A DNA stretch of 64,000 bases from Alloascoidea hylecoeti (lineage: Eukaryota): contig BCKZ01000005.1 in the NCBI GenBank assembly GCA_001600815.1, positions 974,875 through 1,038,874 of the forward strand, read 5' to 3'. The notes under the pieces are model-generated. The model was not told the origin of the DNA, searched no databases, and was given only the letters and a program-made list of their open reading frames with translations. Every line of letters starts with the position of its first letter. The stretch's first letter is position 1. Shown one piece after another: positions 29,801-61,382 of the stretch. Both the position numbers and the translations under genes were made by a program.

Positions 29801-31138
29801 TTGTTTTTAGATAAACCGACTTCAGGTTTAGATTTGCATTCTGCTTGGGATATTGTTCAATTCTTAAAACAATTGGCTGCAGCAGGCCAACCGATTTTAT
29901 GCACTATTCATCAACCTTCAGCTACATTGTTTGAACAATTTGATAGATTATTATTGTTAAAGAAAGGAGGTAAAACTGTTTACTTTGGTGATATTGGGGA
30001 AAGTTATCAGACAATGATTGACTATTTTGAATCCCATGGAGCGCCTAAATGTGGTTATGATGAAAATCCTGCCGAATATATATTGAATTGTATTGGTGCT
30101 GGTGCAACGGCTTCAGCGGATTCTGATTGGAGTGAAATATGGAATAATTCAAAGGAATGCAAAGTTGCTAATGAAGAGGTTGAAGAAATTAACTCGAATT
30201 CAAATGTTGTTAGTGATATGGTTGATCCAACTTTAAGTGAGCGATTTGTAGCCAGTTGGACCAAACAATTACGATTGGTTACATGGCGAGCATCAACTCA
30301 AATGTGGAGAGATACCGTTTATTATGTGTGTTATCCAATCTGCTGCGTTATTCAATCAGATTCAAGAAAGAGCCATTGCAGCCAGAGATTTATACGAAGT
30401 GAGAGAAAGCGCAAGTAATACATTCTATTGGTCTAGTATGATTTTTGGACAACTTTCAGCTGAAATACCTTATAATTTTTTTGCTAGCGTTATTTGTTAT
30501 TGTTGTTTCTCTTTCCCTTTAAAAATTGATACAAGTGCAACAATCTCTGGATTTCTCTTTTTAATCTTTGCAATTAATTTTGTTTTATACTTCACAACTT
30601 TTGGATTAATGGTTTTATATATGGCACTAGATTTACCTTCTGCAGCAGTTATATGTGGTATTTACTAAATTTCTGTATATCATCATTCTGTGGTGCTTTT
30701 CAACCAGTTAGTTTGATGCCAAAATTCTAGACATTTATGTGGAAAGTTTCACCTTATACATATTTCATACAATGCTTTGTTGGGACTGTTTAACATGATT
30801 TTGAGTTTGAATGTCCATCCACAGAATTGGCATATTTTAATCCCCCTGATGGACAAACTTGTGGAGAATATGCCTCAACATTTTTTGAAACGAATGATGG
30901 TAAAATTAATAATCCCACAGCAACATCAAATTGTGCATATTGTCAATATACCGTTGGAGATATATATTTATCATCGGTTACCATTAAATTTAGTCAAAGA
31001 TGGAGAGATTTTGGATTACTTTGGGTTTATATTATCTTCAATATAGCTGCAATGCTTAGATTATATTGGATGTTTAGAGTTCCAAAGAAGAATTCATATT
31101 CACCAATCGCTATTGCAAAAAGATTATTTAGAAAATGA
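26867..31138 (+). pseudogene. PDR/SNQ2-type full-size ABC transporter (ABCG) pseudogene
   Basis: Fragments in correct order: [39 protein letters not shown] segments, LMGESGAGKTTLLN, LNVEQRKKLSIGVEL, LLFLDKPTSGLD (Walker B E->K) and C-terminal CAYCQY. Many frameshifts, stops and internal deletions. Confidence 0.93.
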
Positions 31139-43940: not shown

Positions 43941-45650
43941 TTAATCAACGGTTGTGCCATCCCAACAATATTCTTGAAAGCATCGTTTACATTGATTTGT
44001 TTGCTCAATTCCCCGTCTCTCTTGTTCACGTCTAATTATAGCACAACCTACACATGCATTCCATTCATTATCCAATGTTAAGTTATTTCTGCTTGCGACT
44101 TCATAACCGTTTTTAATCATGGATTTTTTTTCGGTTTCTGAATATTTCAATTTATATGTAGAGACATTTGAATCAAAAGAAAATTTTCTATTTGCGATGT
44201 AAATAACCAAAGGAGGAATATTAGTTAATGATAATTCGGTTAAATTAGAGGCGTTACATCCAAAGAATGTGGGCCTTTTAGTTAAATTTAGTTTCAAGAA
44301 AGTGTTATCATCCGGGACATATGGAAAGGTGATTCCGGCGCCTTGTTTTTCAAATTGCCTTTCATATGTAGAAATAAGGGCATCTCCGTTAGGAAAGTTA
44401 TTGTCATCAGCTGAATTATCAAATGCAAATATTGTATCAACTTGCCTTTCCTCTAGAAGTAATGGATATAAAGGAATATTTTGTCCATCTTCACCACCAT
44501 CAACTAAAGATAAAAATTCAGAAGACGATATTGTACTTAAAGTATTAAAATTTGAAAATGGATTTGGCTCATATATTGCAATATCATTGTATTCGACACC
44601 AATATCATATTTAAGTTTATCGATTATCCTCAAGAGTATTTTTTTTAAAGGTAACTTTTCATCAATTGTATTGACAATTGCATTGAATAACGAAGATGAA
44701 GTACCCATTATAAATCCGGCATTATCAAAGCCAGCAACGCATGATCCATTAACTTGTGTACCTCCATTTGTAGTCGTTCCTAAATACTTAACGTTTGTAA
44801 ATGCTTCCAATGTTGGATCCCATGATCCCAATTCAAAAGGATTTATTTCGAAAACTGTTGAATTCAAATTAATAACTTTTGTGTTTGGATATCTCCCATC
44901 TGCAACAAAAATTGGAAAGGGCATATCATGACTAACAAATGCATCAAGTTGTTGAATTGTCGACCAGGTATATCCAGAACTTTCTTCCAATGACATGTCA
45001 ATTAAATGAGATGACAACATTCTACCCCATGGATCTGTTAAAGAAACTGAAGTAGAGTCAGATTTATCCTCAACTTCATCTGCAATCTCTTTCCAGTATG
45101 CGATTGTCTTGGCTAAATCTAAACCACCAGGATTATACAAATTATGTTTAAGATCCCAAATTCCAGAATTTGGCTCTAAAATATCTTCAATAGAAGTCCA
45201 ATTGTTTAGTACAAGAGTACCGACTAGCCAACTTCCTCCCGATAATCCAGTAATATATGTAGAAGCTTGAACTAATCCTCCTAAACCGGTCGTATTTGCA
45301 TTTTCAGTTCTACCATCAAGAGCTGAAAATTGTCCACCACCTGCTAGCATTGCTCTAAGACCACCACCAGAAAACGCCATGCCTATATTAAGAGAAACAT
45401 TTGATAAGAATTCTTGATAATCAAAATCAGTTAGATTTGCTCTAGCAAAATAGTCCAACATGGCAGCATCAGTAACAATATGTCTTTTTTCAATCCAAGC
45501 CTTTTCGCTTGAACTTAAACCATCTGCAGTTCTAACTAAATCTTCTGAAGGACATTCAACAAGACCAGGAGCATAGGAATTTGTTGGCGACCAGGCTGAT
45601 ATTAACGGAGAGAATAAACCAATCAAACAAGTTATTAGAATTAGTTTCAT
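43941..45650 (-). CDS. Lysophospholipase / phospholipase B, secreted
   Basis: Signal peptide, WSPTNSYAP, SGGGLRAML, GLSGGSW, LVDGGEDGQNIPL and terminal CFQEYCWDG. Confidence 0.95.
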   Translation of the reverse strand: MKLILITCLIGLFSPLISAWSPTNSYAPGLVECPSEDLVRTADGLSSSEKAWIEKRHIVTDAAMLDYFARANLTDFDYQEFLSNVSLNIGMAFSGGGLRAMLAGGGQFSALDGRTENANTTGLGGLVQASTYITGLSGGSWLVGTLVLNNWTSIEDILEPNSGIWDLKHNLYNPGGLDLAKTIAYWKEIADEVEDKSDSTSVSLTDPWGRMLSSHLIDMSLEESSGYTWSTIQQLDAFVSHDMPFPIFVADGRYPNTKVINLNSTVFEINPFELGSWDPTLEAFTNVKYLGTTTNGGTQVNGSCVAGFDNAGFIMGTSSSLFNAIVNTIDEKLPLKKILLRIIDKLKYDIGVEYNDIAIYEPNPFSNFNTLSTISSSEFLSLVDGGEDGQNIPLYPLLLEERQVDTIFAFDNSADDNNFPNGDALISTYERQFEKQGAGITFPYVPDDNTFLKLNLTKRPTFFGCNASNLTELSLTNIPPLVIYIANRKFSFDSNVSTYKLKYSETEKKSMIKNGYEVASRNNLTLDNEWNACVGCAIIRREQERRGIEQTNQCKRCFQEYCWDGTTVD

Positions 45651-46040
45651 GTTAAGTTGATTTGGCCATATATAATTATAATGATTAGGGTTATCTATTG
45701 AAGTTAATTCTTAGAACAAAAAACGGAATTCGATACTCTTAAATATATATTTAATATTTGCAAACGTTAATACTGTTGAGAATTAGCCAATCAACTTAGG
45801 TAACATTGTTTCAATTGTTCGGTAAAGGGCTCGTTTAGTTAAATATGAATATATAGGCCTAATGTCATATATTCTTTGTCAAGGCTTAATATTATATGCC
45901 AAACAGGTGTACAATATATTTATTTAAAACTTTAATTAAAGGCTTCCAATAATCAATAATTATAATATCACTCTAATATAATGCTCAAAATTTTCACAAA
46001 ACTAATTATAACTTGATCATATTATTAAGGTCCCGAAAAT

Positions 46041-46048
46041 TCCGCGGA
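46041..46048. promoter_or_regulatory. PDRE-like palindrome TCCGCGGA about 390 bp upstream of the phospholipase B gene
   Basis: Exact match to the Pdr1/Pdr3 consensus in very AT-rich DNA; function in this species is unproven. Confidence 0.3.
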
Positions 46049-46884
46049 GTATGTTATATATAAAAACAAATTTCTAGTATAAATTTTGATCGGAAAAATT
46101 ATAGTTTATGTATTTACAGAGTGATATTCTCATAATATATAAGCGCTAAGTTGTATAATTCAAATATTTAACTGTGACCGCAGTTTTTTTTTAACTAGAG
46201 ATGGTTACGTACACTGATATATATATTACGTCAACTTATTTTTATTGGACATGGCACTCTTGGGCGGTCGACAAGAGGTGGCGCGACTTTTTAGTGTAAA
46301 TGGTTTTAACAGGCAGTTTAATTTTATATAAATGTTCAATTATAAATCATAGGGCATGAAAATTTATTCCTTTATGATTTAAGAGACTTAAGTAGCAGCT
46401 ATAACCTTTATTTTGTTTTGGAAAAAATGGTACCTATTTCCTATTTCTCGAGCTTCGGTATCAGTCCTGTCAGCACATAATTGCTCTCGTGTCCCTTATC
46501 TAGATACCATTATAATATAATAGTTAGCGGTATAGGGCCTATACCCCACATAATCCCAAGATATCCGCCTCTTCTGTATCAAACCACGACAAAGCGTATT
46601 AAGCTTTAAGTATCATATATACGTATATACATATATATATGAATGAATTCGAATATGTAAGCTTTTTCAGCTGGTATATAAGTCTCTATATATTTGGAGG
46701 CTGGTCAAATAAATTGTAACAACTAGTAATATTCTTGATCTATTTCTTGCCCATAGTATAATATCCTTCAATGATATATCCCCAATACATAATTAGATCA
46801 ACAATTCTATCACTTAATTTTTAATGCATATAAACCGATTATACACAATTAATATACACTGAAAATTATGGGATGGCTAATATA

Positions 46885-47482
46885 CAGTCATTTAACTATA
46901 TTTCAGCCACTTGACCGACTAAATATTCGTACATCACAATATTCAACTACGCGACCCAATACAAGCCTTGTGATGCACTTGATATTCGACTAGATGATTC
47001 AGCCATTTAAATTCTGATAAATAATTATCGGCCACATGATGCACTAATGTTAGGTCATATTGGTGAATAAATATCGGGCATGTATACAACATCATTTTTA
47101 AAAAAAGTACAAACTCGATACAAAATAAGACTACTTAGTACCTAATTCATATTTGAACGTGTTGATTGGTTTTGGCTCATTTTTTATATTTACTTATAAT
47201 TATAACGATTAACTATTCATTGATCTTACTCTTTAATTATCAGACGAGAGTTATTGAAACTTTATTAAAGGACAAATGTTAATATTTTTATTTACGAATG
47301 AGTAAGTTATATGATACTAAAATCACACATGACCAACAATTAGACCTGGTCGGTATTTTAAAATGGCCGAAACCTAATGTATGATATGACCAGTTTTTTA
47401 GTGCTTCAAGTGGCCGATTACATAATTTTAAAGTGGGCGAATATTTACTACATTAAAAAGGCGAAATTATGTGAAATGAATG
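46885..47482. mobile_element. About 600-bp degenerate MITE related to 26158-26403
   Basis: TA|CAGTCATTTAACTATATTTCAGCCACTTGACCGACTAAATATTCG ... GAAATTATGTGAAATGAATG|TA. The internal TTTAGTGCTTCAAGTGGCCGA matches the 26-kb MITE TIR with one mismatch. Confidence 0.65.
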
Positions 47483-49096
47483 TACCATAGTTCACTCTAT
47501 CTAGGTTACGTAAGGAATTACAGTCACGTATGAATGAATTGTAACATATCGTAACATATCACATAATACTTTCTTAAAGAATAAGCTTATAAGGTTTAAA
47601 TGGGTCCTTTATCCACCATTCAACCAAGCCACCAGGCCATGGGGTGCCCACCATTGGATAAAAATCTAACCTAAGCCAACACCATGTCAATTAATGATTC
47701 AAATACCAGCAAATATAGCCGAACGCGGAACTCTTAAAGAACCATCAAATAATGAGGTGGAACTAACAAGCGAAGGCATACACGAATGCTGATACAACCA
47801 TACAACCACAGCCACAGGTACTTACTTGCATAAAATTCCATTATATAATGAAGTTACATAAGTTACATAATCTAATTTTATTTCCTTTTATGTGCCACGG
47901 TCTTTAATTTTATTAGATTACAATTTTACTGCAGATCTGAATCCCTTCCATTTCTATTTAACCTCCTATAGCAGTGAGTCTAGTGACTGAAAAAAAATAC
48001 TTCCTAATATCCAGCTCAGGGCGCAAGCAGAGTGTAAACTTATACCTACACAATACCTTGAAGTAACGTTCAAACATGTAGTGTATTTACACTCTTCTAT
48101 TGTTGTTTCTTATATTATATTAGTATTGGAATTGATTGGCCAGACTATAGTTATATGAGAATTTTCTGTTGGATATGGGGGAAATCAATGATACATCAAA
48201 TTGAAAGAAAATTAAAGGTGCATACCGATTTTGTATGATCCCATTAATTAAAGAATGTGAAGAGATACTCAATTGATTGAAAATTGAAATGGCATAATTA
48301 TATAATATTGTCACGATCTATAAGCCTCCATAAAAGGAAGTAAAACAATCAGATCTGGATTGATAAGCATCACACATGGATGATTCCCATTAAACTTAGA
48401 TCCAGCATTAAAACAACAAAAACAAAAGACTTCATTTTGTTTGATAGAGGTTGTCTTGTGTCATAAATAGAATTTGTTTCAGATTGTAGTTTGGATAAAA
48501 GTCAAAATTTGTAATAGTGTAATATTCGTGAGGACTTTTGAGGTTAGCCAAAATGTTATTTATCTGTGTCCTTACATATTCCATGTATTCTTCAGCATCT
48601 TCACAGCCATACAGTTACCATAAAAGTCATATTTTATTAATTGGATTGTTTGATAACCTTGCAATTGGTTCCAAAATTGGGTGAGAATAAAGTATTAAGA
48701 TTGGTGGGAAAAAAAGTTCCTCAACCCAAACATATCACTAAAACCAAATGTTATAGATGTGAGGCGCTTTACCTTGTTTAATTAATGTCTTATACTAATT
48801 TTTTACCGAAAATGATACTATCGGGAATTACCAACCCATTTATATTTATCCTTTAAAGCTGAGAAAAATCTTCTTATACTTCTTGTGATTTTTATTGATC
48901 TTCTCTCTCTCTCCTTTTTGCATTTTCCAAGCCCTTGGTTGTAGAATTATAACAAAACAGTTCCTCAAAATAATAACTTTTGGATATAAGTTTCATACTT
49001 CAACAAAGGTATAATATCAATAACCTTCGAACTTTATATTATATTGGAATCAACTGCAGACCAATTCCCAAGTGGTTTATAAAAAATATTATAACC

Positions 49097-50961
49097 ATGG
49101 CGAAAACATCAAGGAAACTTAGTCACCAATCATCCCTTCGATCATATGCTTCTAGGCGGTTAACGAGACATAGCACTACACGAAAAACAATTTCGAAAGT
49201 TAAGGAAACTTCAGAAGCTACACTGATATATTCACCTAAAGGCACCAAACAATTAAATCAATATGAATTACTTGATAATATTGGCAACGAAAAAGATGAT
49301 TTAGAAAGATTTATATTCGATGGAGTATCCCCCATCGCACCCAACGGTATGAAAGGAAGGAAAGTAAAACTGGCAAGAAATCCAATAACTGGAGATAAAG
49401 TGGTACGTTCATATCAAATTAATGCTTGTTTATACTTGCATTCTTGTCTTATATATAGTTTAAGATCTAACATTTTAAGGCCATAAAAGAAATAGAAAAG
49501 ATTGTACCACAATTAAGTGGTGAATTACAAAACCTTGGTTCACAAATACAATACAATAACTATCTACGAGAACTATCCATTTTAAAAGAATGCTCACATG
49601 AAAATATTATGGCTGTTTATGAGATTATAGATGATGAAAGATATCGAACATTGTATATGGTTACAGAATATCTATCAAAAGGTCATTTAAAATGGGAATC
49701 AACACAACGAAGACCAAAAATGGGATTAATTCCAGTAATTCCAATATCAACGGCGAGGAAATATTTCATTGATTTATTATCAGCTATTGAATATTTACAT
49801 TCAAAAGATATTATACACTGTGATATTCGACCACATAATTTTTTAATTTCAAAAAAAAATGATTTAAAAATCTTTAGTTTTAATTCATTTTTTTTAAAAA
49901 ATAATGATGATGAAGAAAATAATAAAAATTTTAATATTTCTTTAAAAACTTCAGATGAAATGAGATTTATGGCTCCTGAATTATGTGTTGATTATTATAA
50001 TCATGTAAATCAATCAAATGATTTATATAATACTTATGTTAACAGCAATAATTCAAATCAATCAATTGGTTTGAAAATTCGAAGATTCGAAAATCCTGAA
50101 GCAATTGATATCTGGTCATTAGGTGTTACTTTATATTGTTTTGTTTTTGGTAGATATCCATTCTTGGCAAGAAATAAATTTGATTTGGCTCGTCAAATTG
50201 TAACAGAACCTGTTAGATTCCCAACACAGTATAGAATAAATCATGATATCAACAATGCGATTGATTTAATATCAAAAATAATGAAAAAAGATCCAAAAAA
50301 GAGAATCACATTAAGTGACATTAGACTACATCCTTTTGTTGTTAACTTAACAATGGATGAAAATAGAGCTAACGAACATATTCATAGTGAATCATTAGAC
50401 ACAGCTATTCAAAAAAGATCAAATTCCATTATAGCAAAGAAAGGTTTATCGAAACTTCATCGAAAAGTGAATCATTTACTAGGCTTTGGTGTTGATGTTC
50501 ATATAACAACCGAAAAAGCTGAAGAAATTGAAAAAGAAATTCAATTAGAGGAAATACAAAGAATAGAAAAACAGAAAAAACTAGCTACCGAAAAAATGAA
50601 ACATCAAATACATCTCGTTAAATCAGCTGAAGGTATAAATGATCATGGAAATCACAATCACATTCACAATACCAATCATAATCACAATTATCATCTTAAG
50701 AATCTTGTAACTATAAGTACGCCAGAATTAAGATCAATAATTTCAACAAGAAAGCATAAAATTGATGTAAAACATATTCATAATCCACAAATTCAAAATT
50801 CATGTATAAATTTAAATGGAATTGGTGATTATTCAATTGATAGAAATAGAGATTCTTATGGTATTAGATCAATTACATCAAGTTCAATTGAATCTACTTT
50901 TTCATCGGAAACTGATACTTATTCATCTGATGAACAATATTATAAAAGAAATTACCTATGA
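49097..50961 (+). CDS. CaMKK-family (Sak1/Tos3/Ssp1-like) protein with degenerate catalytic motifs, probable pseudokinase; 2 exons (49097-49402, 49480-50961)
   Basis: Intron GTACGT...TCTAAC...AAG restores KV|AIKEI in frame with the 450-aa ORF. VKET...LNQYELL, FMAPEL and IDIWSLGVTLYCFVFGRYPF are CaMKK-like; HCDIRPHN and KIFSFN replace HRDIKPxN and KIxDFG. Confidence 0.82.
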
Positions 50962-51610
50962 TAATAAAGATTATAACACAATTATATGGATTTCGCTTGT
51001 ATTTTTTTTTTTCTACAGAGAATGAAGCTCTAGTACGATCGAAATTGCAATATGATATTCATTTCTAGCCATGGAAAATACTATATAAATATATTAGCTA
51101 TAAATTAAATATAAATATTTGATTACATATAACTATAAAAGTTGACGCTTACTTCATAGGGAGTCTCTCTGTCCATCTTAAATGTGATACTGTTAAAATA
51201 CAATCCAATCGAAAGCGTAAGCTACAGTGATATTATTGATAATTATAACATTCGTAGACCAAGATTCATTTTACATTAAGTGTTCCGCACCATATAAGTT
51301 ATACAATCATTATATCCCATTTAATCTCTACCTTCGGAACTAAGCAGTCAGCATGGCCGAATGTTTAGTCAATACATCAGTGTCGTTCTCCAACCCGGGA
51401 GAAATAATACAAATCTTCCGGAACATATATATAGGGTAAAAAACCTTTTTATCAACACAATCTGATGCCTAGAATTCCGTTAGGCAACATTTCTGATATT
51501 TCTAATTCTAAAACGCATTTAAATCCGACTGAGCAAATTAAAATTTGTGGTAAGAGTCTGAGAGACCCGTAGTTTCACAACATCCTAACAACCTTATTTC
51601 TTTTCACAGA

Positions 51611-52939
51611 ATGGCCATGGAGACTGTTACAGACAAATTCAAACAGTACAGCGATGAAATTGAGAAAACATTCAGTGAAAATAGGCATCAGCTATCCGAG
51701 GTGGACCCCAGCATTTTTTTTGGCGACCTTAGTAAGGAGGAAAATTTAAATGAGTTGATAGCGCTTACTAGAAAAAGTATATTCGTCAATAGCAGTGCAC
51801 TTGTATTACAAAACCTTCTGTGCAATTTACCCATGACAGGTTTGTTTATAACTGGGTATAATGGTATGCCAAATATAGATAGATCAAGTGGTGCTGCTAG
51901 AAAGACTGGATCAAGTGGTGCTGTTAATGTTAATACTAGTTCCAAGATAAATCAAATGAGTGATTATTTTTACACAACTTCATTTATCAATGGTGAGACA
52001 CTAAAATTCGAAGCAGAAAGTATTTGGTTGGAGACAGCATTATCGCAATTAGATGGCCCTAGAGTAAAAATGACAATGTGTATAATCTTGGATGGTATAT
52101 TGGATGTCAAACTGGGCCCTCAAGAAAGATTTTCCGAAGCAGATATATCTGCTTTTATAAGTAATAAATTGCTTGATCCTGGTATTCGTTTTTACAATAG
52201 AATAACTGAATCTGGTTTAACTTTGCACAGAGAAAAACCTGGAAAGCTAATGATGAGAACTAGAAAAAGAAATGTATCAACAAGATCAGATTTTACTATT
52301 TCTAGTAAAAATAACCCTGATATTATCACTATTGAGACGAAAATACCTCAATTAGAAAAAATGGTGGGGGGTGTCAGTGGGTTTAACCCCGATGATAAGT
52401 TTAAAGAAAAAGCTAATCAAGTTATCCAACAAGCACTCGCACTTGGAACACCATTTGGTATTCTAAGTGATGGAGTCTTGATCTTTTTATTCGAAATACC
52501 ATTAGATACAGAATTGAAAGATTATGAAGCAAAATTACCTAATAAAGGATCTAAATATAAGGAACTACCAATCAATTACAAAGTTATAAGAGCTCATGAA
52601 AACGGAGTTTTTTTAATATTTTTATTGTTTCTGAAAAAAGCAATTGACTTTTTCAATATTCACACTAGAGAAGAAGTGAAAGAAAAATTACAACATTTTG
52701 CGAATTGGTTAGAGAAATCGGTCGAAGAAACCATCATTGCTGAAACTGAATCTCGAGATAAGATGAAAGATTACTTTTTATTTTCTGAGGAATCTAAAAA
52801 TGTAGACATCACACGGGATATGAATTTAAGGATAAAATTCAGTTCTTTTCAAGAAAAAGATCGGATTCAGCTTTCCAAGCTTCCAAATGAACGTTATCAT
52901 TCACAGGTACTGCGTTGTTCATCACAGCAACCCTTTTAA
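51611..52939 (+). CDS. PD-(D/E)XK restriction-endonuclease-fold protein; N-terminal part of a nuclease-kinase gene
   Basis: Motifs in order: FSEADISAFI, RSDFTI, ITIETK, NQVIQQAL and TPFGILSDG, as in HsdR-N-like nucleases. The ORF ends in the first strands of a kinase N-lobe (RYHSQVLR). Confidence 0.68.
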   Translation: MAMETVTDKFKQYSDEIEKTFSENRHQLSEVDPSIFFGDLSKEENLNELIALTRKSIFVNSSALVLQNLLCNLPMTGLFITGYNGMPNIDRSSGAARKTGSSGAVNVNTSSKINQMSDYFYTTSFINGETLKFEAESIWLETALSQLDGPRVKMTMCIILDGILDVKLGPQERFSEADISAFISNKLLDPGIRFYNRITESGLTLHREKPGKLMMRTRKRNVSTRSDFTISSKNNPDIITIETKIPQLEKMVGGVSGFNPDDKFKEKANQVIQQALALGTPFGILSDGVLIFLFEIPLDTELKDYEAKLPNKGSKYKELPINYKVIRAHENGVFLIFLLFLKKAIDFFNIHTREEVKEKLQHFANWLEKSVEETIIAETESRDKMKDYFLFSEESKNVDITRDMNLRIKFSSFQEKDRIQLSKLPNERYHSQVLRCSSQQPF

Positions 52940-53537
52940 CCTTATAAGCGGACGTGAATATATTATTAAGTGGATTGACCCGGTCCTTGCTGTTTGTAAC
53001 AACAAAAGATTGATTAAGTTGGCTGAACCTTGTTACAATTATTACAAAGATGAACTACGAATCTACATGGTGTTATCAGAAAAAACAAATTTAGAGGACA
53101 TAGTGCCTAAGCTTCATGGAATAGGTTTTTGTACCTTATTTGGTGATAATGGTGAAACCGTTAGTGCAGGATTATTCCTGTTACTAGAATACATTGATGG
53201 TAAAGAACCTGATTTTTCAGATGATAAAATATACGAAAAGGCAATGTCAAATTTGAAAAAGTTACACGATGCTGACATAACTCATGGGGACATTAAACTC
53301 CCAAACATAAGGGTAACAGACAAACAATATGTGTATTTTTTCGATTTTGGTTTAAGTAGCACAACTAAAGGAGATAAACCAAGAATTACTGATATTAAAA
53401 GCAAAAGGGATGAGGAAAAATTATACCGACTCAGGGAAGAAGCTTTAAAAGCAAAAAAATATTCAGCACCAATAATAGAAGAAAGGGAAGAAACAATGGG
53501 AGAGGAAGGAAGAAAAAGAAGAAGATTAAATCCATAA
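52938..53537 (+). CDS. Protein-kinase-like domain (Bud32/RIO/FunK1-like) in the +1 frame relative to the nuclease ORF
   Basis: YIIKWIDP (beta3 Lys), YKDELRIY (helix C Glu), IVPKLHG, LLLEYIDG, HGDIKLPNI and FFDFG; C-terminal NLS-like RKRRR. Confidence 0.82.
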   Translation, partial: NLISGREYIIKWIDPVLAVCNNKRLIKLAEPCYNYYKDELRIYMVLSEKTNLEDIVPKLHGIGFCTLFGDNGETVSAGLFLLLEYIDGKEPDFSDDKIYEKAMSNLKKLHDADITHGDIKLPNIRVTDKQYVYFFDFGLSSTTKGDKPRITDIKSKRDEEKLYRLREEALKAKKYSAPIIEEREETMGEEGRKRRRLNP

Positions 53538-54277
53538 CCATAATTTACTATTTTTTTTTTATGATTTTACTTTATTTTATTTTATTTTATGAATATTACA
53601 TTATACCTTGTATAAATTTAAAACATCGAAAATGTACCAATTGCAAACTGATAAGAAGAACTTGAAATACCAAAGAAAAACACGAACTATTACTTTTGAT
53701 ATACCCAATAAACAATGAAAAGAAAATGAAGAAGAAGAATTAATTTATATAATAAATGACAATACTTTCTTAAACAAGATTAAAATACTCTAATAAATTC
53801 AGAGCGATATATACCTATACTCTTTGTTTAAAAAATGGGATAATATGGTAAAACATAAACAAATTTAATTAAAACAATCAATATCAGGAAAAAGAAGATC
53901 AATTCTCATAAAATAAAACAAAATTTAAAATGTACTATTATATTAATGATATGATTTTGGTGATGAATAAAGAGTAATTAATATGGATATTTTTAAAGAG
54001 CAAACTCAATCCTTTTTTTCTAATGAATTGTTGGTTGTTCCTTTTTGTTGTTGTAATATAATATGTGCCATGTTTTTTTTTGAATTTTTGAATTTGAATT
54101 TCATTCTTCATGATTACTTCTTTAATGGTGGTAATTTATAATTATATTGATATGGATATGTGACTATTGGTACAGTATGGTACAGTTGCAGCGAGAATAC
54201 AGATCTACAGAGAGAGACATTATAATACAAGTTAACAAAAACAAGTTTATTGCAATTGCCGCTTCTATAATATATTA

Positions 54278-54484
54278 TTACAAAATACTTTCATCCATTT
54301 CTTCATCACTATCAGCTTCATCCTCTATATTTACCTCTTCTTCTTCCTCATTTTCATCAGAATCATAAGTGTAAGATACAGACCTATTTTTATTACGAGT
54401 ACTTCTTCTTATGGCACCCTTTTCCTTTGACAATTGCCTATTTGCTTTTACTTGTTTTGGTCCTCTTTTTTTAAAGAAGGCCAT
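54278..54484 (-). CDS. Possible small basic/acidic protein (68 aa, or the first exon of a longer gene)
   Basis: ATG shortly downstream of a TATATA; basic half with IRRSTRNK followed by an acidic tract. Confidence 0.35.
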   Translation of the reverse strand: MAFFKKRGPKQVKANRQLSKEKGAIRRSTRNKNRSVSYTYDSDENEEEEEVNIEDEADSDEEMDESIL

Positions 54485-55330
54485 GCTTCAGTGTATATAT
54501 CTAGATTGGTTGGAGATTTTAATGGCAGAAAAAAGTTGTCACCGCACGTTCCTACACTAAGCTTCTAGAAGAGGCTTTTAATGAGATTCCTAAGGGTCGC
54601 ATATTCTAGCAGGATAGCACCATAAAGCTAAAATCGCGATGAATTAGTCTCGTGGAAATGAGACATAAATAGGTAGTAGCGCTCTTTTTGACCCCCAGAA
54701 CCTCTATCCCCCGTCGGACGTTAGCCATTTATGACATTAGAGGGGGTCAACACGGATATTGAGCTTACAATTTAAATTTATTTACACCATTTACAGAATA
54801 CTATGCACTACATTAGGAATTATTTAAGGCCTTGTAGAGTATTCAATGGGTACTTACATGTACAATATTGCCAATTTTATTTTTTGGAGGTGTCAAAAAA
54901 AAGATCACCAAACATTTATTTTGAACAACTATATATATATTTGGATTTTAAGAAGTTACCATTACAGCTGAGAATTAGGGGAGTCATGATTTTTGGTTAA
55001 GTTATTCATTGTGAATCGAGATCGTATTTCCATTTCCATTTGATCATTCTGCTGGTTTAAATCTTGTTAAAAGTACGCGACATAAGTTTATCATGTGGGC
55101 CAAATACTCTAAAATATCCCCTAAATTAAGTGGAATGACTGTATAAACTTTAAAAAAAATTTTGAACATTGGTAGAAAAATAAAAATAATAGTACCGTAA
55201 TTAATAATACAAATAAACAAATAATGATATATATAATAGAAAGAATAAAAACACATTTATGCATGCTGCCTAACAATTAACATAAATGAGGAACTGAATA
55301 ATTAAAATCAAACACAATCTTTTAAAATTT

Positions 55331-55865
55331 CTAAAGGCCAAATAATAACACGAAATAAAATGCAATAGCTAAAGCAGAAGTTGATTTTCCTAAATATTTG
55401 GTGTCGTAATATAGTCCAGTTAGAACATTTGCGGCTGAGGATATTGAATCATTTATGAGTGTTAGATTATCTGAGCTTATCGAAGTTGAATTGTGTGAAA
55501 TACTAAATGCTAAAATTGAGCTTGAAATTGAATCTGAAGATATTGGCATTGATGATGCGGTTTTTATAATAATCGACTGTTGTGGCAGTAGTACAATTAG
55601 TTTAGATAAAGTAATTTGAAATGAATCTGATAAAGTGCTCAAGTTAGTTGTAACAGGAGTGGACAGAAGTAAAGTAAAATGCTCTGTATTATACGTCTAT
55701 AGTTTTGAAGCACATAAATCTCTTTGTGAATATGTAATACACTTAGTTCCAATAAACTAATTTAAAATGAATCAAATGAAGTGCTCAAGAGAGTTGTAAC
55801 AGGAGTGAATGGAAGTAAAGGAAAATTCTCTGTACTATATACTTTTGAAGCACATAAATCTCTGC
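55331..55865 (-). pseudogene. Remnant of a GPI-anchored Ser/Thr-rich cell-wall protein with about 150-bp internal repeats
   Basis: Ser-rich ORF ending GKSTSALAIAFYFVLLFGL. Tandem repeats 55616-55722 and 55762-55863 encode DLCASK...TPVTT.LST..DSF with stops. Confidence 0.55.
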
Positions 55866-56524
55866 AAATATTAATATCCCATATACGTAATTAGCTATGG
55901 CAAACTTAAAATTGTAGTTAACAATATTACTACAATTGCCATCTATTATTTTCTATATATCTCGATGTAAAAGCATGCATTGTATTTAAGTTTTATTCCG
56001 GTTAGCTATCTATCATTAATCATTTACACTTATATACATATAACCTCATGGTATAAAGCCTATTCCCTTGGGTCCTGGTTCTTGCACATGCTATAAATAG
56101 TTCGTATAGTCACAAATTAGAGATTTAGACCTAGTAGCTTCCAACTTAAACAACCGTGTTTGCAGTTATGTTTTTTAATATCCTTATGGTTGGGGTTTAT
56201 ATGTTTGATGAACAAAGACAAAAAATATATAAAATATGTATATTTGTTACAATTAATTATTTTTTATATTTAGAATAAATATATTCAGTTATTTAGAATA
56301 TAGATAGTTTTTTAAACATATTTAGAATATATAAATAATCTACAAGTTCTTTAATATATTTTATATCTTTTACTAATAATGTCAGATATCGAAATGACAG
56401 AATACTATGTTTTACATATAAATATGTACATAAGGCCTTATATCCTTATTAATACATGATTCGATTCATTCGTTTCCTAACACTATCCCTCAAGCGAGGT
56501 GAAATATGTTGAAGGCATCTTGGA

Positions 56525-56572
56525 AATCAGCCGTTCAATCAGCCGTTCAATCAGCCGTTCAATCAGCCGTTC
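56525..56572 (+). repeat. Perfect 12-bp tandem repeat (AATCAGCCGTTC)x4
   Basis: Seen directly. Confidence 0.95.
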
Positions 56573-58129
56573 GATAATTATTGTGAATTCATTTCTTAAA
56601 TTGAAGTCTTTAAATGCCACACTAGTAATATTAGCTTCATGTAATTAGGCTAATTTGAATATCATTTTTCTAGTAGCGAGATCTACAGGTATTCGATCTT
56701 CATTCGTTCTAAAACTTCCTAGAGCAATAGATTCAATAGATACTATAGATCATTGTTGAATATCGATAGATATTTGCCAAGCATATGCCAATAATATTAA
56801 GAATCGCCAAGAATATTTAGATTACTATAAAAGTTAAATAAAAATTCTAATTCATAAATTTTATAGACTGTAAAATAGTTAATATTCAAAAGACTAAGAT
56901 GACTTCAATATATACACTTCAGTCATAATGCTATACCCTATCGTATACGTATGTCACCTAATAATCTTCTTCATTGGGATAATTCGTCAGAATCATAAGT
57001 TTTTAAAAAAAAAACTTTTCTTGAGTTGGTGAAAATAATCGAATAATACTATAGTTAACGTTAGACTTTATATATACGGCTTTATGCGTTGTTGAATAAG
57101 TTGGGACCTCAAAATAAAAAGTTTAACGAAAAGAACATATATATACACACAGTGGCAATTGCTAAAGTATAAAGGTATCTTCAATAAGGAGATTTTCTTC
57201 TAAACTTGCGATTAAGATTATTTTTTCCCATATGCTACTCATATAGGCAATATATAACTTGGACGAGCAATAACTTGGATGCTACAATATTGTTCAGTTG
57301 GAACCGTGAATTACAAAATCAGCACAAAATCTTATTATAGATGCTATCATTAAAATCTACCTAATCCCATAATTCTGAAAATATTTGTTGTATTTTTTTG
57401 TTTCGTGAGATTTCTTCCACAAGACTCCTACCATTATCTGAGGTATCTATCTACTCTTGAGGGGCAAGAGGTCATTTGGAGACCTTGATTATGTGTAAAA
57501 ATGGTTGTACCGCTAATCTAGAACCTTTTCGTGAGCTGGTTGATGAGATGTGTAGGCATGAAAAAACATCCGTCTCAAACATGCCCCCAAGGAACGGGAT
57601 AACAAAGCCTTATTGTTCTGCAAAATATCATGCGCTGGACATTGCAAGGCACAAGGAACTGAAAGTTAGATAGTTGGTTAAACCTTATTTAATCCTTATT
57701 ATCTTTATAAAATTATGATCTAGTTTAGCTACTTTTTTATATTTAAAAATATGTAAAATAAGAAATATACTTACACCATTACGTTTGAAGAATTAAACAG
57801 AAAGTCAAAGAGAGCTCTAGAAATTTTGTAAAGATTAAAGAATGAGAAATTAAAAAACGTTTTACTATAAAGCGACATCTGGTGGCGTTGTAACAATACA
57901 TACATATGGATTGAAACACTCTTCTTCACTGCCAGGCTCGGACCAAACGCTCTCTCTGAACCCCTCAATGATATTAGAAGAATTTAATCATTTTCTCCTT
58001 GTATAGATAATGCTGGTATAATTCTTTTTTTTTTCCATCGGTTGTTATGATTCTGGTGCGTAGAAGTTCTTTCTGAGGAGTGTGGAACGCCATCTACTAT
58101 TATCGAGGACTACGTGCTTCTATATAGGT

Positions 58130-58760
58130 AAAAAGCAGTACCAGTTATCCATTGTTTCTCCCATCTGGAAGCCTATTTTATCACAGTTATGAATACACTG
58201 CGGCTGCCAATGATATTCAGTCATTAAGACACTAAGAGCTTTATATTCAATTACAAGTTCCTTTTTATTACTACTAATTAAGTATTAAGAAACCGATATG
58301 GGTCTAATCCCATTTTTTTGATGTGATTCCTTATGGGAAAGTCACCCGCTCGCCCAATTATCATTAGTGACGTTCTTTATTGGGTTTTTTGTGGTAGGTA
58401 ATCATGTCCTAAATTGCTTCGGCCGCTCAATTAATCTATGAAAACAATAAAGCAGTTCTTTCTCAGTCGTCTCCTCTATTTTTTGCCTAGTTGAGTAGCA
58501 AGTTGGTCAGTTATCAGTTAAAGCTGAGGATGCGGATTGTACCCTATTGATACAATATTGGAGTGTTCAACAACCGGACGGCGTCCCTAGAATTATATTC
58601 AATCGATATTCAAGACTATTGCTTTCCATGGGTTTCAATCTACTTGTTGCCAGTATCTTAAAGTAAATGCTTTGAGAGTTCTTTTGAAGTTTCCCAATGT
58701 TGGTGCTTCTGTAGTGGATTCGGATAATCCTTAATGATAATTAAATCAGGTTTAAATCAG
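58130..58760 (-). mobile_element. Degenerate pogo/Fot1 (DDE_1) transposase remnant
   Basis: 58260-58141 translates as ELVIEYKALSVLMTEYHWQPQCIHNCDKIGFQMGETMDNW, resembling the pogo/Fot1 motif (Y.I.P..IYN.DETGF.MG). Upstream fragments IGYNPHPQL and GLSESTT weakly resemble the HTH regions. Confidence 0.55.
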
Positions 58761-59063
58761 GTTGAAAATGACGAGAAGCTGGTAACAAATCTCATCAACA
58801 ACCACCGGTATCAAAAGAGAGAATTTGTTACAATATATTAGGAGGTAAGAACAAAGGCTATAAGCACTAAAAATAATCTTTCTGGATTTTCAACGACTGC
58901 AATATGACATTTTGACACCTTCATAATAATTTTTTTTTTGGAAACGTTTGGGAAGAGGAAACAAAAATATTTTTTGAAGAAAAAATCATTTTCTATAAAT
59001 ATTTCATTGAAGAATTGAAATATCCATAGTTTGTAAAAGAAAAATTTTGAAATATAGTTAGAG

Positions 59064-59101
59064 AAACTAAAAACTAAAAACTAAAAACTAAAAACTAAAA
59101 A
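59064..59101 (+). repeat. (AAAACT)n microsatellite
   Basis: Seen directly. Confidence 0.9.
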
Positions 59102-60155
59102 CACATGATGAATTATGTGTCAAGGGAGATATTGGATGTATTACTAAAGAAGGTTGAAGTGTAACTATCGCTTTTTTCATATCTAGACTATATCGGTATT
59201 AGTGATATATTTAGCATTATGATCAAGATTTAAAATTTAGAAAGAGGCTGAAATTAAGTGGATCGAAGAAACTTAGAAGATCAAAAATGGAGAACTCACT
59301 TCGTCATTTAGCGTAGCATGTCTGACGACATGGATGAACTATAATTCTATATTTTGTATGGGCTGTTTCAAAGGGACCCTTATGCATACTCCCTGCATTG
59401 GTTTCCATCTTGTGCGACAATCTTGTGCGACAATCAGAAAAAAACATTATCGGTGCTGTTGATAACAGAATTCTCTGAGCTATATCAGAGAGATATAAAT
59501 AGAACGGACCACTGGCACGGTTGATAGCCTCTATAGAGATAGTTTTACTCTTAATATTGAGTCACGAACTTAGTAACGTGTTCAGATTATTCGTTACCAG
59601 TCGTCAGATACTGATTGATTGCGATATTTTATTTTTTATATAGCAATGTATAGTAATTCTTTACATTCATTTCTATAGTTTCTATAATTAGAGTTGAACT
59701 GTTAACCACATTCAGGAATGAAGTGAAAATTTTTACAATAATATCGATTCTTTATAATATAACTCTATTATTGCATTTGGGACCGGACATACCAAAAAGA
59801 GTCGCACGGCCTTGTGAGCTAGAGGAAAAATTAATTTTTAATTATTAAGCTAAACTTAGTTGAATATTGGATTATATTTTCTATTATAATTAATTCATTC
59901 TATCTAATCAATTATGGCTATGAAGATAATGAATATCCGATTGGGAAAGTGTTTGTAATTGGAAAGATCTTCTAATTTCTATCTAACAGCTATTTTTTAA
60001 TACATCAAATTGTTAATAGCTGGTTCAATGATCTCGGTTTGTATGTATAATAATATCGGATTCTCAGTTTACGTAGAAAGTCGTACCCACAAATGACTTA
60101 TTAATCAGTATACCTGCAGAACTTTTCCAATTCGTAAAAATCATTTCTGTGAAAA

Positions 60156-61382
60156 TCATTTCTGTGAATATAAATAAGCACCGTAAAAAACCAAAACAGT
60201 ACCAATTATAATCCCACCATTAACAGGATTTCCGAAAATCCAAATAGATAATAATAAACTTGTAAATTTTCTAATATTTAAAATGATCATAACTGTTAAT
60301 GCAGTAGTATTTCCAGCTAAATTTTGAACACCTCTAATACACATATATTGAGTAGCAGTTAATAATAATAAATTTAGTATTTGTTTTGATAAATAAATTT
60401 CTTTACCAAAAAATCCTTTAAATAAAATTGTTAAAAAATTAATATTTATTGATGGTTCTGAATTCCATAAATCCATAAATTGTTTAATTGCACTTTTTGA
60501 AATAAATAAAAAAAATGGTAATGCTAAAAAATGTTGAAAAAATAAATTTTCTCTCCAATGTTTTCCATATAATTTATAAGTATTTTCTAAATATAATGCC
60601 ATTATTGACATTAATATAGAAGATGTAAATAAAACACCAATACCAAAATAAAAAATTAATAATTCTTTAAATTCATCAATTTCTTTAATTTCTGTTGAAT
60701 CTGATGATAAATTTTTTGTTTTTAAATCAATTGCTTTTTTTGTTGATGATTCAGATGATGATAAAGTTGCAGCAATAACTCCTAATGTTAAAATAATTGA
60801 TGCTAAAATTTGTTTTTTTGAATATCTTCTACCCATAATATATCCAACAATTGTAGTTGTAACAACACCACTTGATCTAAAAATAATATGTAAAGGAACA
60901 GAAATATTTAAACCAAAAGCAATATTATTCATTAATGAAACAATAAAATATAATAAAACATTAATTATCCATCTTTTTAATGGAACTTTTGATTTTTTAA
61001 TAAATAATGGAGGATTTGAAGAATCAAAAAAATGAATATAACCTTCTAATGCAACGAAAAAAAATTGAAAAAAAGTTATAATACTATAAGTATTTGGAAA
61101 TTCGGATATAATTGATTCGGATGCATAAATTGTTGAACAACAACCACCAAAGATTAATGATAATATTAAGATCCATTCACCAATTGATGATTGAAATAAA
61201 CCTTTTAATAAACCAATTCTTGATATTCTATTTGATATTTCTATTGGATTTACTTGTTCTGGTTGTTGATTTTTTTCATTTAAATATTCTGGATTAGATA
61301 AAGTATTTTGTTCAAGATCGTGATCATAATCATTATCCATTAAAGGTAGTTTATAATCTTTATCTCCTGAAGTTTCTGACAT
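60156..61382 (-). CDS. YEA4: Nucleotide-sugar transporter, UAA family (Yea4/SLC35B4-like)
   Basis: LIFGGCCS, ITFFQFFFVA, ISVPLHIIFRS, HWRENLFFQH, TQYMCIRGV and LNIRKFTSLLLS; multiple TM helices. Confidence 0.88.
   Translation of the reverse strand: MSETSGDKDYKLPLMDNDYDHDLEQNTLSNPEYLNEKNQQPEQVNPIEISNRISRIGLLKGLFQSSIGEWILILSLIFGGCCSTIYASESIISEFPNTYSIITFFQFFFVALEGYIHFFDSSNPPLFIKKSKVPLKRWIINVLLYFIVSLMNNIAFGLNISVPLHIIFRSSGVVTTTIVGYIMGRRYSKKQILASIILTLGVIAATLSSSESSTKKAIDLKTKNLSSDSTEIKEIDEFKELLIFYFGIGVLFTSSILMSIMALYLENTYKLYGKHWRENLFFQHFLALPFFLFISKSAIKQFMDLWNSEPSININFLTILFKGFFGKEIYLSKQILNLLLLTATQYMCIRGVQNLAGNTTALTVMIILNIRKFTSLLLSIWIFGNPVNGGIIIGTVLVFYGAYLYSQK

Follow-up and report, generated by a model that had tools for sequence, protein, structure and literature searches.

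A nuclease followed by a kinase is the architecture described for the Spok and Crinkler toxins (PMC6660238, PMC12693581, PMC5289972), and according to the same accounts a mode of action in which the nuclease is the poison and the kinase the antidote has been shown for Spok and proposed for the Crinkler nuclease-kinase toxins. A Spok3 truncation without the kinase is described as strongly toxic (PMC6660238, PMC12693581), and the HsdR N-terminal domain of Vibrio vulnificus, 3h1t, is given as the best HHpred match of SPOK3 (PMC6660238). Frameshifts reported in the multicopy Spok genes later proved to be sequencing errors (PMC12693581). For the Crinkler type, the nuclease is thought to be toxic, the kinase to be a regulator and the action to be nuclear (PMC5289972). 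A further precedent for the reading given below is PMC9972908. A literature search of limited coverage returned no Spok-type nuclease-kinase toxin-antidote or meiotic-drive gene native to budding yeast.

Here we analyse a locus in the budding yeast Alloascoidea hylecoeti, which lies in a 64,000-nt stretch of contig BCKZ01000005.1 that was analysed as a whole and is called the window below (Table 1). The best explanation of the whole is that the locus is a broken copy of a multicopy nuclease-kinase family, the intact members of which may act as poison and antidote, and we give this combined reading slightly less than an even chance. In the intact members, one polypeptide joins a PD-(D/E)XK nuclease, a minimal Bud32/Rio/Kdo-like kinase and a basic tail. 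It is the family, and not the broken copy, that is the candidate selfish poison-antidote gene.

Table 1 Features of the nuclease-kinase locus and its borders (positions are those of the window).
Feature	Position	Strand	Details
Candidate 5'-UTR intron, 60 nt	51550..51609	+	GTAAGA ... CTAAC ... CAG; putative; ends 1 base before the ATG
ORF1	51611..52939	+	442 aa; ends at TAA, last residues Q440-P-F-stop
ORF1 content			N-terminal region of unassigned fold (aa 1-164), PD-(D/E)XK nuclease domain, helical linker, first strand of the kinase N-lobe
Tandem duplication, 27-nt	51882..51926	+	SSGAARKTG-type repeats; 2 units in the window, 3 in P0001
Nuclease domain as modelled	52103..52735	+	ORF1 aa 165-375; helix, 4-5 strands, helix, strands
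Catalytic motif	52289..52342	+	D227 starts strand 228-231; E242-T-K244 ends strand 239-243
Second frame (kinase)	52836..53537	+	open from 52836; first ATG 52887, 216 aa
23-nt deletion site relative to other copies	52925..52926	+	flanked by 4-nt AGCA microhomology; frame shifted +1
Basic tail RKRRRLNP, candidate NLS	53511..53534	+	P0005 counterpart ends NKKRKITKKK
Repeated downstream DNA	53538..54300	.	summed depth 29-98 in run X1 vs 5.4 in the unique flank; extends at least to 54300

Nuclease and kinase domains compared with described systems

The original prediction had recognised a PD-(D/E)XK nuclease by the motifs SE, RSD, IETK, Q and GILSDG, and all of them are present in ORF1 (SE at residues 175-176; RSD with D227 at 52289-52291; IETK with E242/K244 at 52334-52342; Q270/273/274; GILSDG at 283-288). 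A full-length ORF1 model was unusable (pLDDT 39; best Foldseek E 0.037), and an AlphaFold2 model of residues 165-375 (pLDDT 70.8, pTM 0.72) was used instead. Among 48,161 chains, searched independently of Foldseek, its best structural matches are BpuSI (3s1s, Z 12.0), DrdV (7lo5, Z 10.5) and HsdR (3h1t, Z 10.1), followed by TT1808 (Z 9.1) and 9y1l (Z 8.5), with 6 chains reaching Z>=8; the superposition on BpuSI aligns 136 residues at an rmsd of 3.0. In Foldseek, rows 1-12 for the domain model are all of the restriction-endonuclease fold, with probabilities up to 1.00 and a best E of 1.9e-3, so that the E-values fall short of 1e-3. The best matches in a viral structure library, to a phage HsdR_N-domain protein (E 1.3e-3) and to pandoravirus DUF5898 proteins (E 1.4e-3), are consistent with the fold and add no kinship. 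It had been named beforehand as a counter-result that no nuclease fold would be predicted; what is predicted is a restriction-endonuclease fold, and the model supports the assignment of the N-terminal part to the PD-(D/E)XK nucleases, with the D...ExK site complete.

The catalytic motif is kept as SD[FY] and [IT]E[TV]K in the relatives P0001, P0005 and P0008, and in P0007 N replaces D. At the sequence level, P0008 matches Shedu SduA/DUF4263 (E 1.9e-5) and P0010 a PD_DExK model (E 1e-3). With the type IIG/IIL and type I restriction nucleases the domain shares D...ExK on equivalent strands over 129-136 aligned residues, whereas identity is 12-16%, the host is a eukaryote, and the protein described here has no methyltransferase, helicase or specificity module.

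The second frame carries every kinase residue that had been listed, namely, counted from ATG 52887, IIK (K28), E56, HGDIKLPN (H133-G-D135-I-K137-L-P-N140) and DFG (D153-F-G155), together with the NLS-like tail RKRRRLNP. The catalytic residues are invariant in a four-sequence alignment, with R in P0001 at the position of the loop K137, and the motif positions of both domains are retained in relatives only about 30% identical. In Pfam, the second ORF scores 26.9 bits for APH against a cutoff of 23.2, and for Pkinase 27.6 bits (E 2.3e-6), under the cutoff of 31.7 at which P0005 scores exactly. Further profile matches are to Bud32 (E 2.3e-10), Kdo kinase (8.7e-5), APH(3') (1e-3) and Rio1 (E 0.002), although all of these scores lie far under the cutoffs of the families themselves (for Bud32, 40 bits vs 125). 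A profile search against the PDB with the family alignment returned kinase matches only, and Pfam returned nothing beyond the kinase for ORF1, P0001 and P0005. About 60 aa follow DFG, which makes for a very short C-lobe. As judged by these profiles, the second ORF is supported as a minimal kinase with all catalytic residues, nearest to the Bud32, Rio, Kdo and APH types. The small kinases Bud32, Rio, Kdo (WaaP) and APH provide its best profile matches; unlike them, this kinase is fused to a nuclease, and it is not the KEOPS or ribosome-biogenesis kinase of the host. The basic tail may direct the protein to the nucleus.

Like Spok and Crinkler proteins as published (PMC6660238, PMC12693581, PMC5289972), and as the original prediction had proposed, the nuclease here precedes the kinase. 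The likeness to Spok (Podospora, with Fusarium homologues) extends to an N-terminal region, a PD-(D/E)XK nuclease and a small Kdo/ELK-type kinase in that order, to a nuclease that resembles 3h1t, the best HHpred match of SPOK3 (PMC6660238), and, as far as the accounts cited here describe Spok, to multiple copies, a variable number of internal repeats, frameshifted or pseudogenised copies and a possible 5'-UTR intron. Unlike Spok, the family protein measures about 480-650 aa instead of >700, a budding yeast takes the place of a filamentous ascomycete as host, there was no sign of a Starship or another carrier, and the window copy is broken. The Cys/His cluster C-x3-C-x13-C-x5-H-x7-H that is described upstream of the Spok kinase (PMC6660238) is absent: the stretch from the nuclease to kinase beta3 holds a single Cys in the window copy and P0001 (LRCSS) and none in P0005. 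Of the Spok QxxxY motif after ExK, the Q is conserved (VIQQAL, MIYQCL, VIHQRL, VIHQTV, SVNQCL), with no Y at +4. HMMER/Pfam searches with ORF1, P0001 and P0005 found no match to Spok (IPR052396) at E<=10 in a Pfam set that possibly does not include SPOK2_N (PF27653). ORF1 has its top language-model match in SPOK2_N clusters (0.85, 172/256), and P0005 reaches 0.93-0.94 with them, values that serve as leads only.

With the Crinkler (CR/CRN) REase and kinase modules, such as PiCRN8, the family shares the coupling of a restriction-endonuclease fold to a protein-kinase-like domain (PMC5289972), and a Crinkler+Pkinase cluster scores 0.93 for P0005 in language-model similarity. ORF1, P0001 and P0005 have no Pfam match to the Crinkler/Ubl header (PF20147) at E<=10. 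Unlike Crinklers, the N-terminus is hydrophilic by eye, which argues against a signal peptide, and the gene sits in a free-living yeast and not in a pathogen. A third comparison is with the wtf drivers of fission yeast. The wtf proteins are membrane proteins, unrelated to the protein described here and different in mechanism. What they share is an evolutionary pattern only, with many copies per genome, fast divergence and many pseudogenes (PMC6660238).

Copy number, relatives and possible roles of the family

In three public runs (X1, X2 and X4), contigs stack up over the gene to about 6-30 times the depth of the unique flank: the flank stands at 5.4, 59.2 and 10.5, respectively, and the 17 gene-body bins at 49-179, 336-1148 and 0-168. 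Because depth over the gene exceeds that of the unique flank, the gene is multicopy, a status that rests on summed contig depth, which is not itself a copy number. Many short variant contigs over the gene continue into different flanks, and copies become similar some 0-46 nt before the ATG (loose contig ends at 51565 and 51611). Neither blastn nor tblastn found a second copy within the 64-kb window. Among 1.84 billion representative proteins there are only 9 relatives at E<=1e-3, mostly fragments: seven are fragments of 72-168 aa, and one is 236 aa long. A word-indexed search with ORF1 gave 1 match among 7584 candidates and a family profile 4 among 7996, none outside the family in either case, while P0005 recovered itself and one 30-bit kinase match (E 0.078; 6473 candidates). 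Pattern matches in contigs from metagenomes (593), viruses (571) and prokaryotic genomes (268) yielded 0 confirmed loci in each collection.

The intact relatives P0001 and P0005 carry the nuclease and then the kinase in one protein, and the 164-aa N-terminal region also occurs in other members of the clade to which the window copy belongs. Substitutions inside the ORFs number 23 non-synonymous and 8 synonymous (n=31), with about 20% of sites synonymous; these 31 come from 40 listed substitutions, beyond which 127 further ones exist, and the sequence set against the window is a mosaic drawn from other copies. The counts suggest little purifying selection on the gene. A conserved, single-copy, syntenic distribution had been named in advance as evidence to the contrary; the distribution found is multicopy by contig depth and patchy, with the 9 relatives. 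The best explanation is a dispersed, multicopy, lineage-restricted family of yeast genes.

Codon usage at the locus is atypical: ten neighbours range over 0.06-0.25 in GC3 and the two ORFs stand at 0.27-0.28, and the RSCU distance, 0.04-0.14 in the neighbours, is 0.17-0.19 in the ORFs. The contrast once drawn with poly-Asn neighbours holds weakly, with Asn at 6.1% and 4.7% in the two ORFs and at 5.1-14.0% in ten neighbouring genes. CUG reassignment was considered as the cause of rare CTG codons and rejected, since at one informative site, in the SLH1-like gene, a CTG stands opposite a Leu of S. cerevisiae Slh1. Rfam gave no match over 45000-61000. Elsewhere in the window, a PDR-type ABC transporter gene is broken and PSD2 genes stand in tandem.

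How might such a family act? In the intact members, a nuclear, DNA-damaging nuclease would be the poison, and their own kinase domain would be the antidote that restrains it, in cis or in trans; the family would then be a selfish toxin-antidote element whose copies multiply, diverge and decay. By analogy with Spok and Crinkler, we regard it as possible, though less likely than not, that the family is a poison-antidote or selfish element, given that multicopy, fast-evolving families need not be selfish. Should intact members prove toxic without the kinase, the Spok/Crinkler nuclease-kinase principle would reach the Saccharomycotina. The family would in that case provide a compact, genetically tractable system for how a kinase neutralises a fused nuclease, still a question for Spok in the accounts cited (PMC6660238, PMC12693581).

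We consider it fairly unlikely that the family is instead a conflict or DNA-processing system that serves the host, for example a kinase-regulated nuclease against viruses, plasmids or foreign DNA, or a system of non-self recognition, with copy expansion and decay arising from an arms race or a subtelomere-like location. Several observations fit this reading: nuclease-kinase architecture is described as serving many biological conflicts beyond drive (PMC12693581, PMC5289972), the kinase resembles the bacterial defence kinases PD-T4-6 (E 1.8e-9) and MADS6, the relative P0008 matches the Shedu defence nuclease, and other genes in the window are decaying or duplicated. The kinase matches, however, are confined to the catalytic loop and DFG region, which are generic to kinases; stronger conservation would be expected of a useful defence gene than 9 relatives, most of them fragments, among 1.84 billion representatives; and the neighbourhood of the nuclease-kinase gene shows no evident partner or sensor.

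That the gene is cargo or the nuclease of an unrecognised mobile element, and multicopy through transposition, appears improbable. In its favour are the repetition in the genome of the gene body together with no less than 760 nt beyond its end, the atypical codon usage, and the transposon origin that has been suggested for this class of REase-type nucleases (Zhang et al. 2016, cited in PMC12693581 and PMC5289972). The locus had been placed among transposon debris, yet by Pfam 0 of the 23 small flanking ORFs match transposon families, including transposase, integrase and reverse transcriptase, and no LTR, terminal inverted repeat or target-site duplication was found to bound the gene, so that the description is not supported, although the DNA at 53636-54300, just downstream, is repeated elsewhere in the genome as judged by contig depth. 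Copies moreover resemble one another from no more than about 0-46 nt before the ATG, and the scans of viral and prokaryotic contigs yielded no relatives.

Within the poison-antidote reading of the family, a broader scenario can be drawn. Budding yeasts may own a Spok-type single-protein killer-antidote family, far diverged from Spok or independently assembled out of a restriction-type nuclease and a minimal kinase, that spreads and decays as wtf and Spok do. Truncated nuclease-only copies, the window copy among them, would then be 'killer-only' alleles, kept harmless in trans by the kinases of sister copies, and would create a dependence on intact copies. We judge this scenario unlikely.

The frame break in the window copy

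The locus was first described as an intronless unit encoding a 641-aa fusion. The motifs named in that description are in place, whereas the single unit is not: the span 51611-53537 (+) is 1927 nt long, not a multiple of 3, and holds two ORFs in different frames, of 442 aa and then 216 aa, with ORF1 stopping at a TAA. The kinase frame is +1 relative to ORF1 and overlaps it by 53 nt. The coding sequence is real: at about 30% GC, an open frame of 442 codons would arise by chance with a probability near 1e-16. No disabling change besides the deletion described below was found in either frame.

In the parts that align, ORF1 and P0001 share 96-97% identity. P0001, a 94% identical relative of 584 aa, has a continuous frame across the junction, which reads ...CSSQQFYEATDSNSFNLISG... 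there. Every contig across the site in runs X1, X2 and X4 has 23 extra nt behind 52925 (depth with the insertion over total depth 75.7/75.7, 482.3/482.3 and 89.3/89.3, respectively), and as 23 = 3x7+2, the inserted bases return the second frame to phase with ORF1. Because P0001 and the contigs from all three runs continue through the junction with the 23 extra bases, we interpret the window copy as carrying a frame-breaking deletion, and ORF1 ends as it does because of this frameshift. An intron at the junction was considered and rejected. The sole splice-like candidate, 52907-52948, has a length divisible by 3 (42 nt) and would lead into a stop codon; the same region is coding in P0001 and P0005, and the real introns of this genome differ and restore conserved proteins. 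The window copy is thus very probably a frameshifted, broken member of a multicopy nuclease-kinase family. A 23-nt deletion flanked by microhomology would have shifted the frame after codon 440, ending the nuclease part at 442 aa and stranding the kinase in the +1 frame without its first strand, and the copy is presumably non-functional. With the flagged copy broken, an intact paralogue is the better starting point for experiments.

Two rival readings concern the broken state itself. We find it distinctly improbable that the missing 23 nt reflect an error of assembly or consensus calling, with the locus in reality encoding an intact fusion of about 650 aa. The deleted junction is absent from all listed contigs of runs X1, X2 and X4, every one of which carries the 23 nt across 52925, so that the deletion is found in the window assembly alone; only 0.53-0.55 of the window's sampled words are present in the isolate runs; and frameshifts in Spok genes earlier turned out to be sequencing errors (PMC12693581). 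A clean loss of 23 nt between 4-nt microhomologies is nevertheless atypical of consensus error. Errors of that kind usually concern 1-2 nt within homopolymers. Elsewhere the window is well assembled, its two other split genes having canonical introns, and the missing junction is no evidence against the deletion, because contigs collapse repeats and drop rare variants, and the deleted junction is expected to go unseen.

It is very improbable that the split copy is still active, whether as a nuclease-only protein plus a kinase from ATG 52887 or through a programmed +1 frameshift at CCC-UUU-UAA-C in which tRNA-Phe would re-pair on UUU one base downstream: there is a slippery UUU-U followed by a stop codon at 52934-52939, the deletion is the sole disabling change, and a nuclease-only product could matter if sister copies gave the kinase in trans, kinase-less Spok3 being strongly toxic (PMC6660238, PMC12693581), but the continuous protein of the relatives makes the frameshift derived and not a feature of the family, the slippery site consists of the deletion junction and ordinary codons, and a kinase begun at ATG 52887 would miss the strand that opens its N-lobe.

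Two further split genes in the window are explained by canonical introns that restore conserved proteins, and against the signals of these two introns the candidate 5'-UTR intron of the nuclease-kinase gene was judged.

Two reading frames encoding a nuclease and a kinase

The target locus carries a broken copy belonging to a budding-yeast nuclease-kinase family of the Spok/Crinkler-like kind. The single 641-aa fusion of the original prediction gave way to two frames, ORF1 with the nuclease and a second frame with the kinase, which overlap by 53 nt; the span 51611-53537 is 1927 nt, not a multiple of three, so the fusion had skipped one base. Both frames are clearly coding: each has close and distant protein relatives, and the chance probability of a 442-codon open frame in DNA of such composition is ~1e-16.

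Coordinates of features at the target locus and elsewhere in the window
Feature	Position	Strand	Remarks
ORF1	51611-52939	+	442 aa, TAA stop
Kinase frame	open from 52836, first ATG 52887, end 53537	+	216 aa; +1 relative to ORF1
68-aa ORF	54278-54484	-	basic N-terminus, acidic tail; inside repeated downstream DNA
Direct repeat	55588-55863		146-nt spacing
Short tandem arrays	56525-56572, 59064-59102		
C2-domain phosphatidylserine decarboxylase (PSD2-like) genes	2-2719, 4116-7085	both -	tandem pair
Ski2-like double-helicase gene (SLH1-like)	15219-21290	+	one 66-nt intron, ~15996-16061
PDR-type ABC transporter	26843-31138	+	split among eight or more pieces whose differing frames overlap
CaMKK-like protein kinase gene	49097-50961	+	77-nt intron, ~49403-49479, AAG 3' splice site

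ORF1 itself has no match in Pfam, NCBIfam or PADLOC, the structure model of the whole ORF was poor (pLDDT 39), and a fold search with it was uninformative. A model of residues 165-375 alone, built from an eleven-sequence family alignment, reached pLDDT 70.8 and pTM 0.72. Foldseek against the PDB gave no match at E<=1e-3 for this domain; its first twelve rows were all of the restriction-endonuclease fold (9y1l, DrdV, BpuSI, TT1808, DUF820 and HsdR 3h1t; E 1.9e-3 to 2e-2, probability 0.82-1.00). An independent aligner run against 48,161 representative chains returned six at Z>=8, led by BpuSI (Z 12.0, rmsd 3.0, 136 aligned) and followed by DrdV (Z 10.5), the Vibrio vulnificus HsdR fragment 3h1t (Z 10.1, 129 aligned), TT1808 (Z 9.1), 9y1l (Z 8.5) and a mitoribosomal protein; a second run agreed with the top matches. 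Since the best chance matches typically reach Z 7-8 in calibration, BpuSI, DrdV and HsdR 3h1t lie clearly above that level. In the model, D227 starts one strand, E242-x-K244 end the next, and a helix with a conserved Q follows, a predicted layout that is the canonical PD-(D/E)XK arrangement. D227, E242 and K244 are kept in relatives at 25-40% identity, except in the fragment P0007, which has N for D. At the sequence level, the family fragments P0008 and P0010 match Shedu SduA/DUF4263 (E 1.9e-5) and a PD_DExK model (E 1e-3), respectively, two independent links to known nucleases with this fold. The fold matches, the catalytic residues and these sequence matches bear out the predicted PD-(D/E)XK nuclease.

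The kinase with intact catalytic residues was also correctly foreseen: the beta3 lysine (IIK), alphaC glutamate, HGDIKLPN and DFG are all present and invariant in a four-sequence alignment. Pfam APH scores 26.9 bits on this frame, above its curated cutoff of 23.2, and Pkinase (E 2.3e-6) falls under its own; the best NCBIfam matches (Bud32, E 2.3e-10; Kdo kinase, 8.7e-5; APH(3'), 1e-3) lie far under their family cutoffs, and among PDB sequences Rio1 comes closest (E 0.002). Only ~60 residues follow DFG, up to the C-terminal end RKRRRLNP, so the frame encodes a minimal 'eukaryotic-like' kinase, the class to which Vogan et al. assign the Spok kinase (PMC6660238).

Family, copy number and possible mode of action

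With ORF1 as query, HMMER was run exhaustively over 1.84 billion representative proteins and gave nine matches at E<=1e-3: seven fragments of 72-168 aa, one of 236 aa, and P0005 (482 aa, ~30% identical), which has the same nuclease-linker-kinase-basic-tail order without the 164-aa N-terminal region. Further protein sequence searches with family queries added no relatives, and none were found in metagenome, viral and prokaryotic contig collections (pattern plus tblastn). The closest relative is P0001 (584 aa), at 94% identity by the search tool and, in a separate alignment with the window copy, at 96-97% across the ORF1 parts and 94% across the kinase.

In the public sequencing runs X1, X2 and X4, single long contigs identical to the window span the unique 5' flank (depth 5.4, 59.2 and 10.5). 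The gene, from ~51565-51656 on, is represented by many short variant contigs (summed depth 49-179, 336-1148 and 0-168), whose loose ends run into several different flanks. Read from this summed contig depth, which by the tool's own caution does not equal copy number, there are roughly ten or more dispersed copies. Two of the other copies (loose ends at 51565, X4 and a further run, X5) share a 15-nt stretch with CACGTG just upstream of the start of similarity; it is absent from the window copy, which may therefore have lost, or never had, the usual family upstream region. Among the 40 differences from other copies listed (127 further ones exist, and the reference is a mosaic of copies), 31 are substitutions inside the ORFs, 23 amino-acid-changing and 8 silent; with ~20% synonymous sites, this points to little purifying selection, roughly dN/dS 0.7. 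An internal 27-nt repeat has two units in the window copy and three in P0001. Codon usage also differs from that of ten neighbouring genes, in GC3 (0.27-0.28 vs 0.06-0.25), RSCU distance (0.17-0.19 vs 0.04-0.14) and the CTG share of Leu codons (5/65 vs 6/747). All five target CTG codons fall at positions hydrophobic in relatives, and one host CTG, in the SLH1-like gene, aligns with a Leu of S. cerevisiae Slh1, so this one site gives no hint that CUG is reassigned.

Each intact relative combines, in a single polypeptide, complete PD-(D/E)XK and kinase sites with a basic tail. According to published work on these systems (PMC6660238, PMC9972908, PMC12693581 and PMC5289972), killing by SPOK3 requires the nuclease lysine and resistance the kinase aspartate, a kinase-less SPOK3 truncation is strongly toxic (PMC6660238, PMC12693581), SPOK1 without kinase function causes DNA damage in E. 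coli and S. cerevisiae, and the toxicity of Crinkler toxins is attributed to the REase domain, with the kinase seen as a regulator (PMC5289972). By analogy, intact yeast family members may be nuclear nucleases that are restrained by their own kinase domain, and their multicopy, decaying, codon-atypical and patchy pattern would fit a selfish toxin-antidote element. We offer this reading tentatively, as a possibility somewhat short of even. That these proteins are host-serving conflict or defence nucleases seems rather unlikely.

The family shares with Spok the domain order, an HsdR-like nuclease with an ELK-type kinase, a variable repeat, frameshifted copies and, in the window copy, a possible 5'-UTR intron (51550-51609). 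It lacks two features that define Spok, the Cys/His cluster and the Y of the QxxxY motif, and has no demonstrable sequence homology to Spok itself; the yeast protein is shorter, and its host belongs to a different fungal subphylum. The yeast family may work like Spok, its membership being unproven. Protein-language-model searches, to be taken as leads only, placed SPOK2_N-bearing clusters first for ORF1 (0.85, 172/256 features) and, for P0005, at 0.93-0.94, behind similar-sized fungal 'kinase' clusters at 0.97. The family proteins searched contain no Crinkler header domain (Pfam), and a literature search of incomplete coverage found no Spok/Crinkler-like nuclease-kinase gene in Saccharomycotina. 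The original prediction is partly confirmed in what it observed, the nuclease and kinase sites being present in a copy that is frameshifted, and partly supported in its interpretation.

Flanking DNA and neighbouring genes

The 'transposon debris' said to surround the gene is not supported in that form. The 3' flank is nonetheless repetitive: the downstream DNA is repeated along with the gene to at least 54300, and by contig depth at least 53636-54300 recurs elsewhere in the genome. No LTRs or inverted repeats were found around the gene, 0/23 small flanking ORFs have a transposon-type Pfam family, and the region has no Rfam match. We consider it unlikely that the gene belongs to an unrecognised mobile element. 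No stop-to-stop open frame exceeds 121 aa across the 6.6 kb from 53538 to 60155, an unusual stretch for so compact a genome as a yeast's. The 68-aa ORF has a weak, sub-threshold CAF1A_dimeriz match (E 2.9e-4), probably a composition effect.

The neighbouring genes fit a budding yeast host, and introns in the window are sparse and short. They include an alcohol acetyltransferase family gene, lysophospholipase B, the C2-type PS decarboxylases and the SLH1-like helicase, whose C-terminal Sec63 region has its best match in the RQC-trigger helicase Slh1 of S. cerevisiae (E 4.7e-58), and not in Brr2. The PDR-type ABC transporter (ABC_trans_N, ABC_tran, ABC2_membrane_7) is probably a decayed pseudogene.

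The 23-nt deletion at the junction

P0001 runs uninterrupted across the junction (...CSSQQFYEATDSNSFNLISGREY...). When contigs from four public runs were aligned to the locus, every crossing contig in three of them had 23 extra bases at 52925, at depths (with insertion/total) of 75.7/75.7 in X1, 482.3/482.3 in X2 and 89.3/89.3 in X4. Adding these 23 nt puts the kinase frame in phase with ORF1 and encodes the P0001 junction residues. The first four bases of the missing segment, AGCA, are also the four directly after it, the signature of a microhomology-mediated deletion. An intron was rejected here: the sole splice-like candidate, 52907-52948, is 42 nt long and would reach a stop, and the stretch is also coding in P0001 and in the 30%-identical P0005. 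The two genuine introns differ, with GTAYGY, CTAAY and YAG/AAG signals.

The deleted junction is not among the contigs listed for the public runs, so the deletion comes from the window assembly alone; its absence there neither supports nor refutes it, because contigs collapse repeats and lose minority variants. The SLH1-like and CaMKK-like introns restore conserved proteins (in the latter the VAIK motif, ...GDKV joined to AIKEIEK), so the assembly is generally sound and these other splits have an ordinary cause. An assembly artefact concealing an intact gene is a quite improbable explanation, and it is very improbable that the split copy retains activity, including by a +1 slip at CCC-UUU-UAA-C. 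A pseudogene, or at best a nuclease-only allele, is the likeliest status of the window copy.
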